A DNA stretch of 64,000 nt from Vulcanimicrobiota bacterium (GCA_963714015.1 OY970223.1:3264001-3328000); one strand, 5' to 3'. Positions 727-8,261 are shown, counted from the first letter of the stretch. The notes: a model not told the origin generated them from the letters alone. A program made the numbers and translations.

Positions 727-1263
727 TTACTCTTCTTGGCTGAATCCCAAATCGCGGCTTTGTTCGCGAATCGAATTATTCGCCGTTTCGCGCGCGGCCT
801 CGATCGTTTCTTTGATGACCTCGCCGCTGCGGCGAACGACTTCGCTGCGCGCCTGTCGCATGCGATCCTTCATATCGTCCGCTACCGGACCTAACCGCTG
901 GGATTCCAGTCGCGTTACGGGGAGAACCATGCCGATAAGGAAGCCCAGCGCAACGCCTGCCAGCAACATCGCCATGGGATTATCGCCAGGATTGAGCTGA
1001 ATGTTGCGAGTCATGCCTTGAACGCGCTCTTGCAGCGCATCTCTGGCGCCGGCGACGCGGTCGCGCATGTCACCGGCGCGATCCCGCATATCGCTCGTGC
1101 GGTCGGAGACGGTTCCTTTGGCGTCGTCGATTCGGCCTTGGATGTTTTCCTTGGCACGGTCGACGACATTCGCGTTGTGGGCCACCGATCGAACGTCCTG
1201 CGCGACGCGCCGGCGGGCTTCTTCTACTTCTACTTCGCGGACTTCGCTCCGCTCTTGATCCAT
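727..1263 (-). CDS. Stress-associated helical membrane-anchored protein (DUF3618/DUF883-like)
   Basis: Charged helical 'DMRDRAGDMRDRVAG' segment plus 'NPMAMLLAGVALGFLIGMVLP' TM motif; overlaps the holin-X-type gene. Confidence 0.6.
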   Translation of the reverse strand: MDQERSEVREVEVEEARRRVAQDVRSVAHNANVVDRAKENIQGRIDDAKGTVSDRTSDMRDRAGDMRDRVAGARDALQERVQGMTRNIQLNPGDNPMAMLLAGVALGFLIGMVLPVTRLESQRLGPVADDMKDRMRQARSEVVRRSGEVIKETIEAARETANNSIREQSRDLGFSQEE

Positions 1264-1643
1264 GCTATGTCCTCCTTCACGCTACGCGCGGTTTTGTCGA
1301 ATTCTATAGGAAGCGCGGATTGAAGTTTGATCCATCCGGCAGCGGCGAGTGAGGCCGCCGCAAAGCCCCAAGCAATGGTAATGATAAGTGCCGCAAGCCA
1401 AGGTGTGACCACAGTTGAAAGCACGATGACTGCAAAGGCGGTGAATGCGCCTAACGCCAACAATCCCATCAGTGCGCCGGCGCCGAGCCACACGCCCGCG
1501 GCTGCCAGTCCGGCGAGTTCTTGCCGTGCTTCTTTCTTGAAAAGGTCGAGCTCGGCGTGGAAGAGCGTTCCCAGATCGTGACCGAGATTCGAAACGGATT
1601 CCTTGATCGACGCCGTGTCGACTATCGGTCCCCGTTCGCTCAT
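1230..1643 (-). CDS. Holin-X/YqjE-like membrane protein
   Basis: 'DLGTLFHAELDLFKKE', two TM segments, 'PWLAALII', 'KTARSVKEDIAWIK'. Confidence 0.8.
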   Translation of the reverse strand: MSERGPIVDTASIKESVSNLGHDLGTLFHAELDLFKKEARQELAGLAAAGVWLGAGALMGLLALGAFTAFAVIVLSTVVTPWLAALIITIAWGFAAASLAAAGWIKLQSALPIEFDKTARSVKEDIAWIKSGAKSAK

Positions 1644-3308: not shown

Positions 3309-3381
3309 GATCCCCTACTCCTGAGGGCATCCCGCCCACAAGCCGGTGTTTCCCACGCCGCACGGAACCAACCCCGGAAGA

Positions 3382-4023
3382 ATGATTTTTCAAGACCGCG
3401 CGGATGCGGGCAAGCAACTGGCCGCAAAACTTTCAGCGTATGCCGGTCCGCAAACGCGCGTGCTCGCGCTTCCCCGCGGCGGTCTCCCGATAGGCTATGA
3501 AGTATCGCGCGGGCTGCGCGCGCCGCTCGACGTTTTCGTCGTGCGCAAAATCGGAGCACCGGGACGCGAAGAGCTGGCTCTGGGCGCAATCGCCTCGGGT
3601 GGCGTGCGGGTGCTGAACGAAGAGACGATAGCGGCGCTCGGTGTCGACGACGCAACCCTCGATACCGTTGCGTTGCGGGAACAAGCCGAGCTCGAGCGGC
3701 GCGAAGCGGCTTATCGCGTTGATGCGGCGCCCCACGACGTCGCCGGACGGACCGTGATCCTCGTCGACGACGGGCTTGCGACGGGAGCCAGCATGTCCGC
3801 CGCCGTGCTAGCAGTGCGCACGCTCAAACCCAAAGAGATCGTCGTCGCCGTTCCCGTTGCACCGGCCGACACGGTAGAGGCCCTTTCTGCCGAAGTCGAC
3901 GACATCGTTTGTCTTGCCGTGCCGCGTCCGTTTCGCGGCGTCGGCGCATGGTATGCGGATTTTCGTCAAGTAACCGACGAGGAGGTAAGAACATTCTTGC
4001 GAGCGGCCAATGAACGCGCGTAG
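3382..4023 (+). CDS. Phosphoribosyltransferase family protein
   Basis: 'FQDRADAG', 'LPRGG', 'VRKIGAP', PRPP motif 'VILVDDGLATGASM'. Confidence 0.9.
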   Translation: MIFQDRADAGKQLAAKLSAYAGPQTRVLALPRGGLPIGYEVSRGLRAPLDVFVVRKIGAPGREELALGAIASGGVRVLNEETIAALGVDDATLDTVALREQAELERREAAYRVDAAPHDVAGRTVILVDDGLATGASMSAAVLAVRTLKPKEIVVAVPVAPADTVEALSAEVDDIVCLAVPRPFRGVGAWYADFRQVTDEEVRTFLRAANERA

Positions 4024-4957
4024 ATTGCGCACCGACAACATTCCCGCAGACGGTGATGCAGCGACGATTGAAGTCGAGGGCAAACGCGTCGGCCTGAGCA
4101 ACCTGAACAAAGTGTTCTGGCCCGAACTCGGATTGACCAAACGGGATTTGCTGGCATATTACGATCGAATGGCGCCGCTCATCCTGCCGCACGTCCGCGA
4201 CAAGGCCATGGTGATGAAACGCTATCCCAACGGCATCAGCGGCGACTTCTTCTTCATGAAGCGCACGCCGGCGGTACGGCCCGACTGGATTCAAACGTGC
4301 GCGATCACGCACGGATCCGGCAACGTCATCAACTTCCCGATGGTTCAGGATAGGCCGACGCTGCTGTGGCTCATCAACCTGGGCTGCATCGATCTGAATC
4401 CTTGGTATGCGCCGTGCGAAACCTTTACGCAGCCCGATTATCTGCATTTCGATCTCGACCCGCATTCAGCGCCGTTCGAGATGGTGCGCGAAGCGGCCCT
4501 GATCGTTCGCGACGCGCTACACGTCCTGAAGATGAAGCCTCTTGCCAAGACTTCCGGCGGGCACGGCATGCATGTCTACGTCGCGATAAAACACGGGCCC
4601 GACCAGCACACGGTGTGGAGCACCGCCAAGCAAATTTCACACGAACTGGCCAAAGGGCATGCGGACATCCTGACCGCCGTCTACAAAGTCGAAAAACGCC
4701 CGAAGAATCGCGTGCTGCTGGACTACAACCAAAATCGCTTCGGCGCTACGCTGGCATCGATTTACTCCGTCCGCCCGAACGCCTATGCGGGCGTCTCGAC
4801 GCCGGTCACGTGGGAGGAAGTCGAGGGCGGCTGCGTCCCCGAGGACTTCACAATCGCCAACGTCCCGAATCGCGTCGGCCAACTCGGCGATCTGTGGAAG
4901 CCGCTCACACAGCAGCGCGGGCGCTACGATCTTCAGGCGTTGCTGGGGAGCTCGTAA
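4010..4957 (+). CDS. Stand-alone LigD-type primase-polymerase domain
   Basis: 'LSNLNKVFWP..TKRDLLAYY', 'KRYPNG..FFMK', 'FDLDP', 'KTSGGHGMHVY', 'DYNQN..TLASIYSVRP'. Confidence 0.92.
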   Translation: MNARRLRTDNIPADGDAATIEVEGKRVGLSNLNKVFWPELGLTKRDLLAYYDRMAPLILPHVRDKAMVMKRYPNGISGDFFFMKRTPAVRPDWIQTCAITHGSGNVINFPMVQDRPTLLWLINLGCIDLNPWYAPCETFTQPDYLHFDLDPHSAPFEMVREAALIVRDALHVLKMKPLAKTSGGHGMHVYVAIKHGPDQHTVWSTAKQISHELAKGHADILTAVYKVEKRPKNRVLLDYNQNRFGATLASIYSVRPNAYAGVSTPVTWEEVEGGCVPEDFTIANVPNRVGQLGDLWKPLTQQRGRYDLQALLGSS

Positions 4958-4963
4958 CGCGCT

Positions 4964-5998
4964 ATGCTCGATAATCTTCCCCTCAAACCGCCGATCGAGC
5001 CGATGGAGGCAAGGGCATCGACGACGATCCCGAAAGGCGAGGGCTGGCTATACGAGCCCAAGTGGGACGGATTTCGGTGTATCGCGTTTCGCGACGGTGA
5101 CGAGGTGGCGATGCAGTCGAAGGCGGGACAACCGCTGGAGCGCTATTTTCCGGAAATCGTCGATGCGCTGACGGCCCTGACCAGCAAACGTTTCGTGCTG
5201 GACGGAGAGATTTTCATCGAACAGAATGAAACGCTCGATTTCGATGCGTTATTGCAGCGCATCCATCCGGCTGCGTCGCGCATTCGAAAGCTCTCCGTCG
5301 AAACGCCCGCTACGCTCGCAATCTTCGACCTGCTTGCCGGCGAGGGAAAAGCATTGTTCGAGCGGCCGCTTCGCGAGCGACGCGACGCACTGGAAGAGTT
5401 CGCAGAGAAGCACTTCAAAAAAAAGCGCCGTATCGGTCTTTCGCCGGCATCGACCGATCTTGTCAAAGCTCGCGGATGGCTCAACGGCGAGCTTGCGCGC
5501 TTTGACGGCGCGATGGCCAAGAGGCTCGACCGGCCTTACCGTTTCGGCGAGCGTGACGCGGTCGTCAAAGTAAAGCGCGTCTATACCGCCGATTGCGTCG
5601 TCGGAGGATTTCGTCTCGCAAAAGACGGTAAAACAATCGGCTCGTTGCTGCTCGGCCTCTATGACGACGAGGGTCTGCTGCATTTGGTGGGTTTCATCGG
5701 CAGCCTTACCGCTGCTGAGCGTGCTCGTGCCGGCGCGCTCCTCAAACCCATCGTTCAGGAACCCGGGTTCACTGGAGCGCGGCCCGGCGGGACCAGCCGA
5801 TGGGGATCGCGCGAAACCAAGTGGCATCCCGTCGCTGCAAAGATCGTCGTCGAGGTGCGCTTCGATCATGTTACCGCGCACCGGTTTAGGCATGGAGCGC
5901 GCTTCGTTCGGTGGCGGCCCGACAAGCCGCCGCGACAGTGCACGATGGAACAGCTCTATAGCCGGGTAAATGTTGCAGATGAAACGCTTGGGTCGTAA
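4964..5998 (+). CDS. ligC: ATP-dependent DNA ligase (LigC-type)
   Basis: Motif I 'YEPKWDGFR', 'LDGEI', 'FDLL', 'VKVK', 'SLLLGLYD', 'RFRHGARFVRWRPDK'. Confidence 0.9.
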   Translation: MLDNLPLKPPIEPMEARASTTIPKGEGWLYEPKWDGFRCIAFRDGDEVAMQSKAGQPLERYFPEIVDALTALTSKRFVLDGEIFIEQNETLDFDALLQRIHPAASRIRKLSVETPATLAIFDLLAGEGKALFERPLRERRDALEEFAEKHFKKKRRIGLSPASTDLVKARGWLNGELARFDGAMAKRLDRPYRFGERDAVVKVKRVYTADCVVGGFRLAKDGKTIGSLLLGLYDDEGLLHLVGFIGSLTAAERARAGALLKPIVQEPGFTGARPGGTSRWGSRETKWHPVAAKIVVEVRFDHVTAHRFRHGARFVRWRPDKPPRQCTMEQLYSRVNVADETLGS

Positions 5999-6257
5999 AA
6001 CATTGCAGTCGTCGAATCGCCGCCGTGCTGCCGAAGCGGGGCAACAGGACAATGTCGTTCCCGGACGCCGCACTGCCGAACGCGGCGTCATCGACGCAGA
6101 ATCCGGCGAGGAAGTATACGGCGTATTGCTTTCGGAGCGCCGGCGCATGGGCGAGAGCAACCCGTCCGTGCCCGCCGAGAAAACTCAGAATACTAGAAGC
6201 ACCGAGCCGAAAAGCGTGCCGAAAACCGGCATTGCGAAAGATCGGAAGTCAAAATGA
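5979..6257 (+). CDS. Hypothetical basic protein
   Basis: ORF overlapping the ligase end and coupled (ATGA) to the next gene; no recognisable domain. Confidence 0.4.
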   Translation: MKRLGRKTLQSSNRRRAAEAGQQDNVVPGRRTAERGVIDAESGEEVYGVLLSERRRMGESNPSVPAEKTQNTRSTEPKSVPKTGIAKDRKSK

Positions 6258-6469
6258 GCGCGTACGGGGTCGAACCGTACGATCGCGCCCATGCCCACAT
6301 CGATCTTCGGATGGACGCCGCTGCGGCGAACCGCATTTTGCTCGCGATCGAACACCTGGATCAGGCGTCCGGCGTCGATCCGGCACTCGACGATCTGCGC
6401 CGGCTGCTGAAAGCGGCGCTGGTCAAGAAATCTTCGGGCGACGTGGACAGTGAGCCGAGCACCGAGTAA
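6254..6469 (+). CDS. Hypothetical protein
   Basis: 71-aa helical ORF in operon position. Confidence 0.5.
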   Translation: MSAYGVEPYDRAHAHIDLRMDAAAANRILLAIEHLDQASGVDPALDDLRRLLKAALVKKSSGDVDSEPSTE

Positions 6470-6475
6470 ACGTGC

Positions 6476-6501
6476 GTTTCCCGTTTTCAGGATACGGGTA
6501 A
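6476..6501 (+). promoter_or_regulatory. Putative SigB/SigF-type stress promoter
   Basis: GTTT-N16-GGGTAA about 30 nt upstream of GGAGG + GTG start at 6534. Confidence 0.55.
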
Positions 6502-6533
6502 CGAAAAACAACTACGAAATTGGAGGTTCCTAA

Positions 6534-7352
6534 GTGGCTACAGCAACGCGCACGAACGATCGCGACGAAATCCGCCGCTGGGTCGAAAGCCGCGACGGCC
6601 GTCCGGCGATCGTTAAAGGAACGGGCGGCGTACTGCGCATCGACTTCGGAGAACCGGAGGAAGAACTCGAACGCGTGAGTTGGGATCGCTTCTTCGACGT
6701 ATTCGACTCCAGCAACCTCGACTTTCTGTACGATCCGCGCGGCCATATGGTCAAATTCGTGAGCCGCGAATCCAACGGAGGAACGAGCATGGCAAGACGA
6801 AAGAGCAGCGGCCGTAAAAAATCCAGCGGGCGCAAAAAGAGCAGTAACGGGCGCAAGAAGAGCACCGGCGGACGCAAGAAGAGCACCGGCGGACGCAAGA
6901 AGAGCACCAGCGGACGCAAGAAGAGCACCGGCGGACGCAAGAAGAGCACCAGCGGGCGCAAGAAGAGCACCGGCGGACGCAAGAAGAGCACCGGCGGACG
7001 CAAGAAGAGCACCGGCGGACGCAAGAAGAGCACCAGCGGACGCAAGAAGAGCACCGGCGGACGCAAGAAGAGCACCAGCGGGCGCAAGAAGAGCACCGGC
7101 GGACGCAAGAAGAGCACCGGCGGACGCAAGAAGAGCACCGGCGGACGGAAATACGGCGCGAAGGCTGGACGCAAGGTCGAGCGTTCGATGCACGAGATGA
7201 AGCGCGGCGAGCTCAAATCGGGACGCAGCGGGAAGAAGGTCAAGAGCCGCAAGCAAGCCATCGCGATCGGTCTATCGGAGGCCAGGCGCAGCGGTGGAAA
7301 AGTTCCACCGAATCCCAACCGCAAAGGCGGTCGCCGGAAGAAATCCCGGTAG
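6534..7352 (+). CDS. Basic histone-like repeat protein: small N-terminal domain + (RKKST[G/S]G)14 + DUF6496-like C-terminus; internal start at 6789
   Basis: N-domain 'EIRRWVESRDGRPA..LRIDF..VSWDRFF'; GGAGGA RBS before ATG 6789; C-terminal 'KVERSMHEMKRGELKSGRSGKKVKSRKQAIAIGLSEARR'. Confidence 0.8.
   Translation: MATATRTNDRDEIRRWVESRDGRPAIVKGTGGVLRIDFGEPEEELERVSWDRFFDVFDSSNLDFLYDPRGHMVKFVSRESNGGTSMARRKSSGRKKSSGRKKSSNGRKKSTGGRKKSTGGRKKSTSGRKKSTGGRKKSTSGRKKSTGGRKKSTGGRKKSTGGRKKSTSGRKKSTGGRKKSTSGRKKSTGGRKKSTGGRKKSTGGRKYGAKAGRKVERSMHEMKRGELKSGRSGKKVKSRKQAIAIGLSEARRSGGKVPPNPNRKGGRRKKSR
6852..7145 (+). repeat. Coding tandem repeat, 14 x 21 bp (CGCAAGAAGAGCACC[G/A]GCGG[A/G])
   Basis: Counted directly; variant units at positions 3, 5, 9 and 11 give a 126-bp higher-order period. 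Confidence 0.97.
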
Positions 7353-7361
7353 CGGCCGGCG

Positions 7362-7727
7362 ATGAATAACGATATTCCGCGTCTGGGGCCGCACCAATTG
7401 GATACGGCGACCATGCCGATCATCGATGCGCGCACTCATCAAGGAAAAGAGCAGATCCGCGGCGCCGTGCGCTACGATCCCAAGCGTTTATTGGCCGAGG
7501 AACACCTGACGCTGCCGATGGCGCACGACGAATCGATCGTCGTCTACGCCGAGGACGAAAAGCATGCGCTCGCAGTGGCCGAACATCTGCGCCGCCAGGG
7601 CTACGAAAACGCCGCAGTGCTCGCCGGCGGCTTAGACGCGTATCGTGACGCGGGACTCCCGCTCGAGCAGGCGACGCAAGAGCAGCCCATTCCCGGTCAA
7701 GAGGGCGCCGGAATTCCGCGTGGTTGA
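7362..7727 (+). CDS. Rhodanese-like domain protein (no catalytic Cys seen)
   Basis: 'IIDAR..IRGAV', 'IVVYAED', 'LRRQGY..AAVLAGGLDAY'. Confidence 0.8.
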   Translation: MNNDIPRLGPHQLDTATMPIIDARTHQGKEQIRGAVRYDPKRLLAEEHLTLPMAHDESIVVYAEDEKHALAVAEHLRRQGYENAAVLAGGLDAYRDAGLPLEQATQEQPIPGQEGAGIPRG

Positions 7728-7736
7728 AATGCGCGC

Positions 7737-8261
7737 CTAGTCGCTGAGGCGAGGCGGCGAGATCTGCAGCAAATTGAGCACGTGCGAGAGCCGTGTGGCG
7801 TAACCTTCTTGACCGCTGCGCAGCAGTTCGTCGCGCATCTGCCGCAATTCGTCGACGGCACGGCTGACGTTGGGGCGGTTCATCTCGCGAAACATTTCAC
7901 GAGCTCGATTGAACCGGCTTTCGTCATCCTCGGCGCCGACGGCGCGACGCTCGAACGAAGGCAGTTCTTCGGAGTGTCCCAAGACGATGTCGCCGACGAT
8001 TTCGATAATGGCGTCGGCGTGGACTCGGGCATTGGTCGCCGCCAGGTCCACGTAGCGTTCTTCACGGTCTCGCGCAGAGATCGCAATCAAATTTGCCTCG
8101 ACGCAGAGTTCGATCAGGCCGCCCACCAGCGGTACCGCATCGGAAGCGGCCTCGAGGTAAGCCTCATAGACCTCGTCCTCGTCTTCGTCAGTGGCATCAA
8201 GGTAATCGTTCCAGGCGCGGCGCGCGTCGAGGATTGCGCGAAAGACCTCTGAGTCAGGCAT
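7737..8261 (-). CDS. Hypothetical acidic helical protein
   Basis: 174-aa ORF with plausible composition; no motif recognised. Confidence 0.65.
   Translation of the reverse strand: MPDSEVFRAILDARRAWNDYLDATDEDEDEVYEAYLEAASDAVPLVGGLIELCVEANLIAISARDREERYVDLAATNARVHADAIIEIVGDIVLGHSEELPSFERRAVGAEDDESRFNRAREMFREMNRPNVSRAVDELRQMRDELLRSGQEGYATRLSHVLNLLQISPPRLSD

Follow-up and report, generated by a model that had tools for sequence, protein, structure and literature searches.

The analysed window comprises 64,000 nucleotides of a Vulcanimicrobiota bacterium (OY970223.1:3264001-3328000) whose genome is assembled as a single 3.56-Mb contig. Close to its beginning, genes for a phosphoribosyltransferase (PRTase), a primase-polymerase (Prim-Pol), a LigC-type ligase, two small proteins (orf95 and orf71), a polycationic repeat protein and a rhodanese-like protein follow each other on the same strand with gaps of -14 to 64 nt, and thus form an operon-like row (3346-7727). 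The features of the locus are as follows.

727-1643, minus strand: apolipoprotein-like helical repeat protein (weak match, 18.6 bits), overlapping a Holin-X (PF07332) membrane protein
3346-4023, plus strand: PRTase, first gene of the operon-like row
4010-4957, plus strand: LigD-type primase-polymerase (Prim-PolC-like), its start overlapping the upstream PRTase gene
4964-5998, plus strand: ATP-dependent DNA ligase of LigC type (NCBIfam NF006078 equivalog, 433.7 bits against a cut-off of 296)
5970-6257, plus strand: small basic ORF of up to 95 aa, its stop overlapping the start of orf71 (ATGA)
6254-6469, plus strand: orf71 (71 aa), conserved small gene directly upstream of the repeat-protein gene
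6522-6526, plus strand: Shine-Dalgarno sequence GGAGG, 7 nt before the GTG start, read directly
6534-7352, plus strand: repeat-protein gene, 272 aa in three parts, pI 11.9, net charge about +68
6534-6788, plus strand: N-domain (aa 1-85), acidic
6777-6791, plus strand: internal GGAGGA, 6 nt and in-frame ATG (Met86) at the fusion seam, possible internal start
6789-7142, plus strand: polycationic repeat region (aa 86-203), 14 RKKST[G/S]G units and two degenerate ones
6868-6993 and 6994-7119, plus strand: two identical 126-nt blocks of six units each, from the unit listing
7149-7310, plus strand: DUF6496 core (aa 206-259, Pfam), followed by a basic tail running to 7349
7362-7727, plus strand: single-domain rhodanese-like protein (Pfam, 39.7 bits), 9 nt downstream of the repeat-protein gene, last gene of the row
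7737-8261, minus strand: orf174, acidic, between the rhodanese gene and a Ppx/GppA gene

The position of the repeat-protein gene three genes after the LigC-type ligase, as given in the initial annotation, was confirmed, two small ORFs (5970-6257 and 6254-6469) lying in between. The first of these contains a peptide, EEV[YF]GVLLSERRR, which is conserved in two relatives (L039 and L142); a truncated match is present in L046 and a weak one, without this peptide, in L073. A conserved 24-nt stretch upstream of orf71 was considered as a regulatory motif; the genome contains it a single time, and it more likely belongs to the coding sequence of the same ORF. The second, orf71, is found directly upstream of the repeat/DUF6496 gene, with or without the N-domain, in 11 loci belonging to six genera among 100 loci of the order, a set that comprises one locus per genome taken from the matches reaching the DUF6496 part and is not a random sample. 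The rhodanese-like protein, whose adjacency to the repeat gene recurs in 10 loci of seven genera, has no cysteine at all and therefore cannot be a catalytic sulfurtransferase. On the other side of it, orf174 is retained in the same block in related genera with 75-92% identity; neither orf71 nor orf174 matches a Pfam, NCBIfam or PHROG model. Elsewhere in the genome a Ku gene lies beside a second LigD Prim-Pol, so that the Prim-Pol/LigC pair of the window represents the LigC-type set and not the sole set of this organism. This second Prim-Pol (G000:C1:819539-820991) matches in two pieces (profile positions 1-177 and 173-254) located in different open frames and may be frameshifted.

The repeat-protein ORF is intact from its GTG start, and its closest named homologue originates from a Candidatus Baltobacteraceae metagenome-assembled genome (Eremiobacterota). 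Charge is unevenly distributed along the protein, with -4.4 for the N-domain, +50.5 for the repeat and +20.8 for the C-terminal part. The sole Pfam family recognised is DUF6496 (PF20106), which scores 79.1 bits against a cut-off of 24 over positions 1-56 of the 58 of the profile; at E ≤ 10, the whole protein matches no other Pfam family, including histone, histone-fold, HC2 and linker-histone families. Together with the conservation of residues 1-85 and their confidently predicted fold, this score bears out the earlier description of a small globular N-domain and a DUF6496-like C-domain on either side of the repeat. A scan for sigma-70-type promoters found none upstream of the gene. The internal GGAGGA preceding Met86 suggests that a shorter isoform, composed of the repeat and DUF6496, could possibly be produced from the same gene.

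Tandem Repeats Finder delineates the array at 6826-7147, with a 21-nt period, 15.3 copies, 93% matches, no indels and a score of 553, which is far beyond chance. At the protein level, MARRKSSG, RKKSSG and RKKSSNG are followed by 14 units, counted as 10 RKKSTGG and four RKKSTSG in agreement with the number initially annotated, and then by RKYG, which opens the DUF6496 domain. Lysine and arginine account for 44% of the region, serine and threonine for 32% and glycine for 23%. As the blocks 6868-6993 and 6994-7119 are identical over 126 nt, the array was enlarged very recently. Only short fragments of three public sequencing runs, all from one study, match the array and no contig spans it, so that the copy number is that of the assembly; one run contained 22% of the sampled words. 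The array itself is real but unstable. Among 29 three-part homologues (P0001-P0029), the repeat region varies from 33 to 124 aa and contains 1-16 [RK]KK[ST] units. The pentamer KSTGG, present 10 times in the window protein, occurs 0-6 times in each of these homologues and is missing from 14 of them, and more distant homologues use RKKTT or AKKSS units. The conserved features of the repeat are its charge and its richness in serine and threonine, and not the H3-like pentamer.

Frame changes were observed within the arrays of two relatives (L042 and L043) and within the N-domain of L046, which belongs to the same genus as the window organism; they could reflect sequencing errors in repeats, or else a phase-like variation or genuine inactivation. 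The genome of the window organism contains another polycationic repeat gene, 56 kb upstream of the window (G000:C1, approximately 3207767-3208300; L222:968-1500, plus strand). It encodes about 140 aa of GGRKK(A/G/S/T)T units, including RKKATGG and RKKGTGG, without DUF6496 and without N-domain, shows one frame change in the middle of its array, and is followed after the stop codon by a hairpin and a T-run. Matches restricted to the repeat (query aa 79-204) are numerous in other genomes of the order. The occurrence of alanine and glycine at the serine position in this same-genome paralogue weakens the idea that serine is essential to the repeat.

The N-domain belongs to a family of stand-alone proteins of about 88 aa, with members named from Mesorhizobium and Rhizobium: among 64 short candidates of 30-148 aa, 62 align with residues 1-85 at E ≤ 1e-3, showing 45-78% identity, and T7, I13, W16, G22, P24, L34, R35, D37, F38 and F57 are conserved. 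Using tblastn, it was also retrieved on 172 plasmid records, mostly of Sinorhizobium and Rhizobium. No Pfam, NCBIfam or PHROG model describes the domain, and none of the 62 short relatives has a Pfam domain. The model predicted from 54 sequences (pLDDT 85.5, pTM 0.74) displays a beta-alpha-beta-beta arrangement occurring twice. Structural comparisons gave a best E of 0.21 with Foldseek against the PDB, nothing at E ≤ 10 by PDB profile search, a best Z of 3.7 with VIA-align wide (no chain at Z ≥ 5 among 48,161), a best E of 0.14 in BFVD and a best score of 0.84, without named family, in the ESM Atlas. Within these searches the predicted fold has no solved or viral-predicted look-alike, which does not by itself make it a new fold. 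On two rhizobial plasmids examined, the stand-alone gene neighbours sugar-catabolism genes (one plasmid) or an ECF-type sigma factor, treZ and glgA (the other), with neither a repair gene nor DUF6496 nearby. Self-association, binding of a protein partner and masking of the basic part are candidate roles for this acidic domain.

Repeat and DUF6496 genes were matched in 133 of the 151 genomes of the order; this tally counts the genome studied here, matches confined to the repeat, and three genomes that are unpublished (G146, G100 and G129) and on which no other result depends. The N-domain adjoins DUF6496 in 15 of the 100 loci, distributed over nine genera. In 10 of these both are encoded by one ORF (L046, frameshifted in its N-domain, among them), two change frame inside the array, one retains an N-domain remnant only, and two (L041 and L071, both from the largest genus) carry separate adjacent genes, the N-domain gene ending in a stop codon and a distinct gene starting with M-P-[SR]-R-K 150-200 nt later. 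Because the two halves are separate in L041 and L071, and because GGAGGA, 6 nt and the ATG of Met86 are located exactly at the seam, the window protein is a gene fusion; relatives also have a methionine at this seam. The three-part protein is a lineage-specific fusion, within a Baltobacteraceae subclade, of an N-domain that was formerly a separate upstream gene. The repeat itself probably derives from a basic N-terminal leader of the DUF6496 protein that slippage or unequal recombination has lengthened to (RKKSTGG)n.

DUF6496 is distributed far beyond this order. With the C-terminal 77 residues as query, 2,960 representative clusters are retrieved at E ≤ 1e-3, the best 150 of which are proteins of 63-217 aa, most of them about 90-110 aa; short basic KKS or RKK tails are often seen at either end in 36 members examined. 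A phage family, phrog_2423, also weakly matches the C-domain (E 3.5e-4). The model predicted from 67 sequences (pLDDT 83.7) consists of two helices joined by a short hairpin, for which nothing significant was retrieved by PDB profile search (best E 1.7), VIA (best Z 4.1) or Foldseek (best E 2.1). Neither this domain nor the N-domain has a solved or named DNA-binding relative in the structure and profile searches, and full-text literature searches on DUF6496 or PF20106 returned no paper.

The link with DNA repair proposed in the initial annotation proved real and wider than first noticed, as it involves gene fusions, recurrent adjacency and co-occurrence with Ku. Among nine DUF6496 proteins of at least 477 aa, five are full LigD proteins (ligase and Prim-Pol, four of them also with the phosphoesterase) in which DUF6496 follows the Prim-Pol domain; the remaining four are three FAD oxidoreductases and one PLP decarboxylase. 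Shorter fusions associate DUF6496 with a stand-alone Prim-Pol (P0088) or Ku (P0065), or, through an RKKT repeat, with uracil-DNA glycosylase (UDG; P0049 and a 301-aa ORF in L098). Precomputed Pfam labels indicate further fusions with DUF72, isochorismatase and hemerythrin, and some of the fusions may correspond to gene-calling read-through of adjacent genes.

Gene neighbourhoods were annotated with Pfam for 100 of 200 extracted ORFs and 17 more. In the order, Prim-Pol and/or LigC are encoded within 10 kb of the gene in 19 of the 100 loci (5 of 28 genera), following two layouts. The first is that of the window (Prim-Pol, LigC, orf71, the gene, rhodanese); in the second, shared by the 11 loci of one genus without exception and also present in another genus, the gene is followed by ExoIII on the opposite strand and then by Prim-Pol and LigC. 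No Prim-Pol or LigC was found within 10 kb in the other 81 loci (23 genera). In the largest genus, five loci were examined and four of them have the DUF6496 gene between rpoC and a GAF-SpoIIE phosphatase gene. Outside it, five loci from four other genera were examined in which a three-part gene follows glycosyltransferase genes; three of these loci, belonging to two of the genera, additionally contain a gene for a NodS-like methyltransferase. More generally, most three-part genes outside the genus of the window organism adjoin glycosyltransferase and methyltransferase genes.

In a collection of species genomes yielding 80 loci, 65 of which come from other phyla according to their record titles, Ku, Prim-Pol or ATP ligase was encoded within 8 kb in at least nine of these 65, against about 0.4 expected; nine is a lower bound since the queries were the window's own proteins at E ≤ 1e-5, and the expectation derives from five of the nine genomes, with 1-4 Prim-Pol genes per 3.3-9 Mb. 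These nine loci are of Acidobacteriota type (three), Bacteroidota type (three), Myxococcales, Gammaproteobacteria and Binataceae (one each), and in two of the genomes the neighbour is the only Prim-Pol copy. In 200 genomes of another phylum, Ku was found in 6 of 10 genomes with DUF6496 and in 15 of 190 without it (odds ratio 17.5, Fisher p = 1e-4, centre genome excluded), a p value that ignores kinship and a shared soil lifestyle; as related genomes are not independent, the enrichment statistics are overstated. The recurrence of fusion and adjacency across lineages, expected of an accessory factor of NHEJ or LigC repair (a category proposed here, with no established family behind it), was thus found. 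DUF6496 tracks Ku, LigD and LigC, which is a more valuable lead than the repeat protein itself.

The reading we favour, with a probability of roughly 55%, is that the protein is a disordered polycationic DNA binder of the DUF6496 family that assists stationary-phase repair. The net charge of +68, the Gly/Ser/Thr-rich repeat and the small basic helical core make a polyanion partner very likely, and the fusion partners of DUF6496 are the reason for reading this polyanion as DNA at sites of end-joining or excision repair. Electrostatic binding to DNA, without sequence preference, would involve both the repeat, with its charge of about +50, and the helix-hairpin-helix of DUF6496, at about +21, and would coat or compact DNA, or keep ends and gapped duplexes close to stationary-phase repair enzymes. 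The enzymes served would be those of LigD/Ku end-joining and those of gap repair (Prim-PolC, LigC, ExoIII and UDG) that are fused or co-located with DUF6496, and the repeat number would set reach and valency. In mycobacteria, LigC and Prim-PolC are reported, in the available part of the study, to peak in early stationary phase and to act in base excision repair with ExoIII-type nucleases (PMC5663958); by analogy with them, the repeat protein may be expressed in dormancy. The product of the window gene is therefore read as a free-standing, extendable DNA-tethering or compacting partner of repair enzymes, which would bind DNA and might stimulate ligation. Of the initial interpretation, the repair link and the convergence caveat are supported; induction by stress, condensation of DNA or bridging of its ends, and tuning by phosphorylation or acetylation would be further putative properties of the protein.

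A broader proposal, which we consider doubtful, is that repair by Ku/LigD and by Prim-PolC/LigC has a third component which has gone unrecognised, namely DUF6496, a small DNA-tethering module that would directly stimulate end-joining or gap sealing and would be deployed free, fused to LigD, Ku or UDG, or equipped with a tunable (RKKSTGG)n arm and an acidic cap. Phosphorylation of the serines and threonines of the arm would then switch DNA affinity, and the cysteine-less rhodanese-homology protein would be a possible partner.

Several other explanations were weighed against the DNA-binding reading. One possibility is that the disordered basic repeats bind RNA and not DNA, the protein being associated with RNA or the ribosome, for instance as a factor of translation or hibernation. 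The proximity of rpoC in the largest genus and the DUF6496 fusions without a link to DNA are consistent with this explanation, and a disordered region of a bacterial H1-like protein is reported, in the available excerpt, as an RNA-binding translation activator (PMC12818456). However, DUF6496 is fused with LigD, Ku, Prim-Pol and UDG and both neighbours and co-occurs with NHEJ genes, which indicates a function in DNA transactions, and the ribosomal proteins and RMF found among the weak structural matches were not significant; we therefore regard a role on RNA as unlikely.

A general role as a hydrophilic protectant against stress or desiccation, or as a filler, without a specific nucleic-acid partner, would reduce the repair neighbours to members of a shared stationary-phase regulon. 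Partner-switching stress regulators (SpoIIE, STAS, HATPase_c_2 and a sigma factor) are often present in the neighbourhoods, and the window contains the apolipoprotein-like and Holin-X-type genes (727-1643), which we assume to be possibly stress-related. Co-regulation alone hardly explains, however, a covalent fusion to LigD in five distinct proteins, and the overall charge makes an anionic polymer partner very likely, so that this explanation appears more unlikely still.

That the anionic polymer could be polyphosphate is suggested by AlgP, an H1-like protein of Pseudomonas whose lysine-rich repeats are reported to space polyphosphate granules, according to the accessible part of the study (PMC9239181). 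The repeats would in this case belong to a granule protein, and a Ppx/GppA phosphatase gene is located about 1.1 kb away in a block conserved in several genera. This phosphatase gene lies on the opposite strand, past another gene, and is therefore not operonic with the repeat gene; moreover, a non-systematic look at the loci screened disclosed no tie of DUF6496 to ppk or ppx, and there seems to be only a small chance that polyphosphate is the ligand.

An assembly artefact, in which the array or its length would result from a misassembled short repeat, is very improbable: the missing spanning contigs and the frame changes in three relatives, two of them inside arrays, speak for it, but the frame is intact between two conserved domains on a single contig and comparable arrays exist in 29 independently assembled homologues, so that the copy number could be affected and not the existence of the array. 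The least probable of all is a mimic of the histone H3 tail with K9/S10/T11-like sites read or written by chromatin-type enzymes, which the 10 KSTGG pentamers could evoke, considering that this pentamer is missing from 14 of the 29 three-part homologues, that ARKST is absent from the window protein, that no histone-fold or other histone family was matched at E ≤ 10, that the same-genome paralogue uses RKKATGG and RKKGTGG and that the organism lives freely in soil, as far as the record names of its relatives indicate.

Rather than mimicking histone H3, the protein thus probably serves as a DNA-coating helper of repair in the dormant state. The H3 tail reads ARKSTGGK (K9, S10, T11) and has in common with the window protein the KSTGG pentamer and basic flanks. 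The window protein differs from H3 by the absence of a histone fold and by a motif that is not conserved among homologues, which makes the likeness compositional; the low-complexity convergence that the initial annotation had allowed for is therefore retained, given the 14 three-part homologues in which the pentamer is missing.

End-joining in bacteria is generally presented as the work of two proteins, Ku and LigD, and it is only lately that repair by LigC and Prim-PolC has been assigned to excision repair. DUF6496, a widespread family without a paper found on it and with repeated fusions to LigD, Ku, Prim-Pol and UDG, represents a concrete candidate for an accessory factor that binds DNA in the repair of dormant cells, and one that could be tested cheaply. 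The repeat protein, for its part, illustrates how bacteria of an uncultured phylum that has been little studied construct polycations resembling histone H1 or protamine, through gene fusion and the rapid expansion of repeats.

The nearest parallels are found among bacterial polycationic low-complexity proteins associated with DNA, to which the window protein appears to belong while being built on an uncharacterised family. With regard to DUF6496 proteins, which are small and basic and include the phage family phrog_2423, its C-domain is a clear member, and it differs from the typical short members by the addition of a 118-aa repeat and an 85-aa N-domain. The lysine-rich low-complexity tails of Ku and Hlp/HupB (PAKKA repeats) of Mycobacterium smegmatis are reported to contact DNA and promote end-joining, and the authors propose a repeated evolution of such tails (PMC3553676, available part). 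What they share with the window protein is a basic low-complexity repeat and an association with the machinery of bacterial end-joining. Unlike them, the window unit, RKKSTGG, known here from sequence alone, is rich in serine, threonine and glycine with neither proline nor alanine, and its carrier is neither Ku nor HU but a distinct protein that combines a DUF6496 core with an acidic N-domain.

In Chlamydia trachomatis, the H1-like Hc2 (hctB) is likewise described as a DNA-binding protein whose size varies with the number of lysine-rich repeats (PMC2848022, in the excerpt available). It shares with the window protein a variable number of basic repeats and is itself tied to a dormant, compacted cell state. 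The repeat unit, the flanking domains and the phylum are different, and neither the window protein nor its repeat matches HC2 (PF07382) at E ≤ 10, a label that is precomputed on only two relatives (P0028 and P0053).

Finally, the excision-repair complex of mycobacteria includes a LigC/Prim-PolC pair, to which the Prim-Pol/LigC neighbours of the window correspond, and the ExoIII gene that separates Prim-Pol from the DUF6496 gene in a genus of the order matches the base excision repair partners reported there. The accessible text of that study (PMC5663958) describes no DUF6496-like or polycationic accessory protein.
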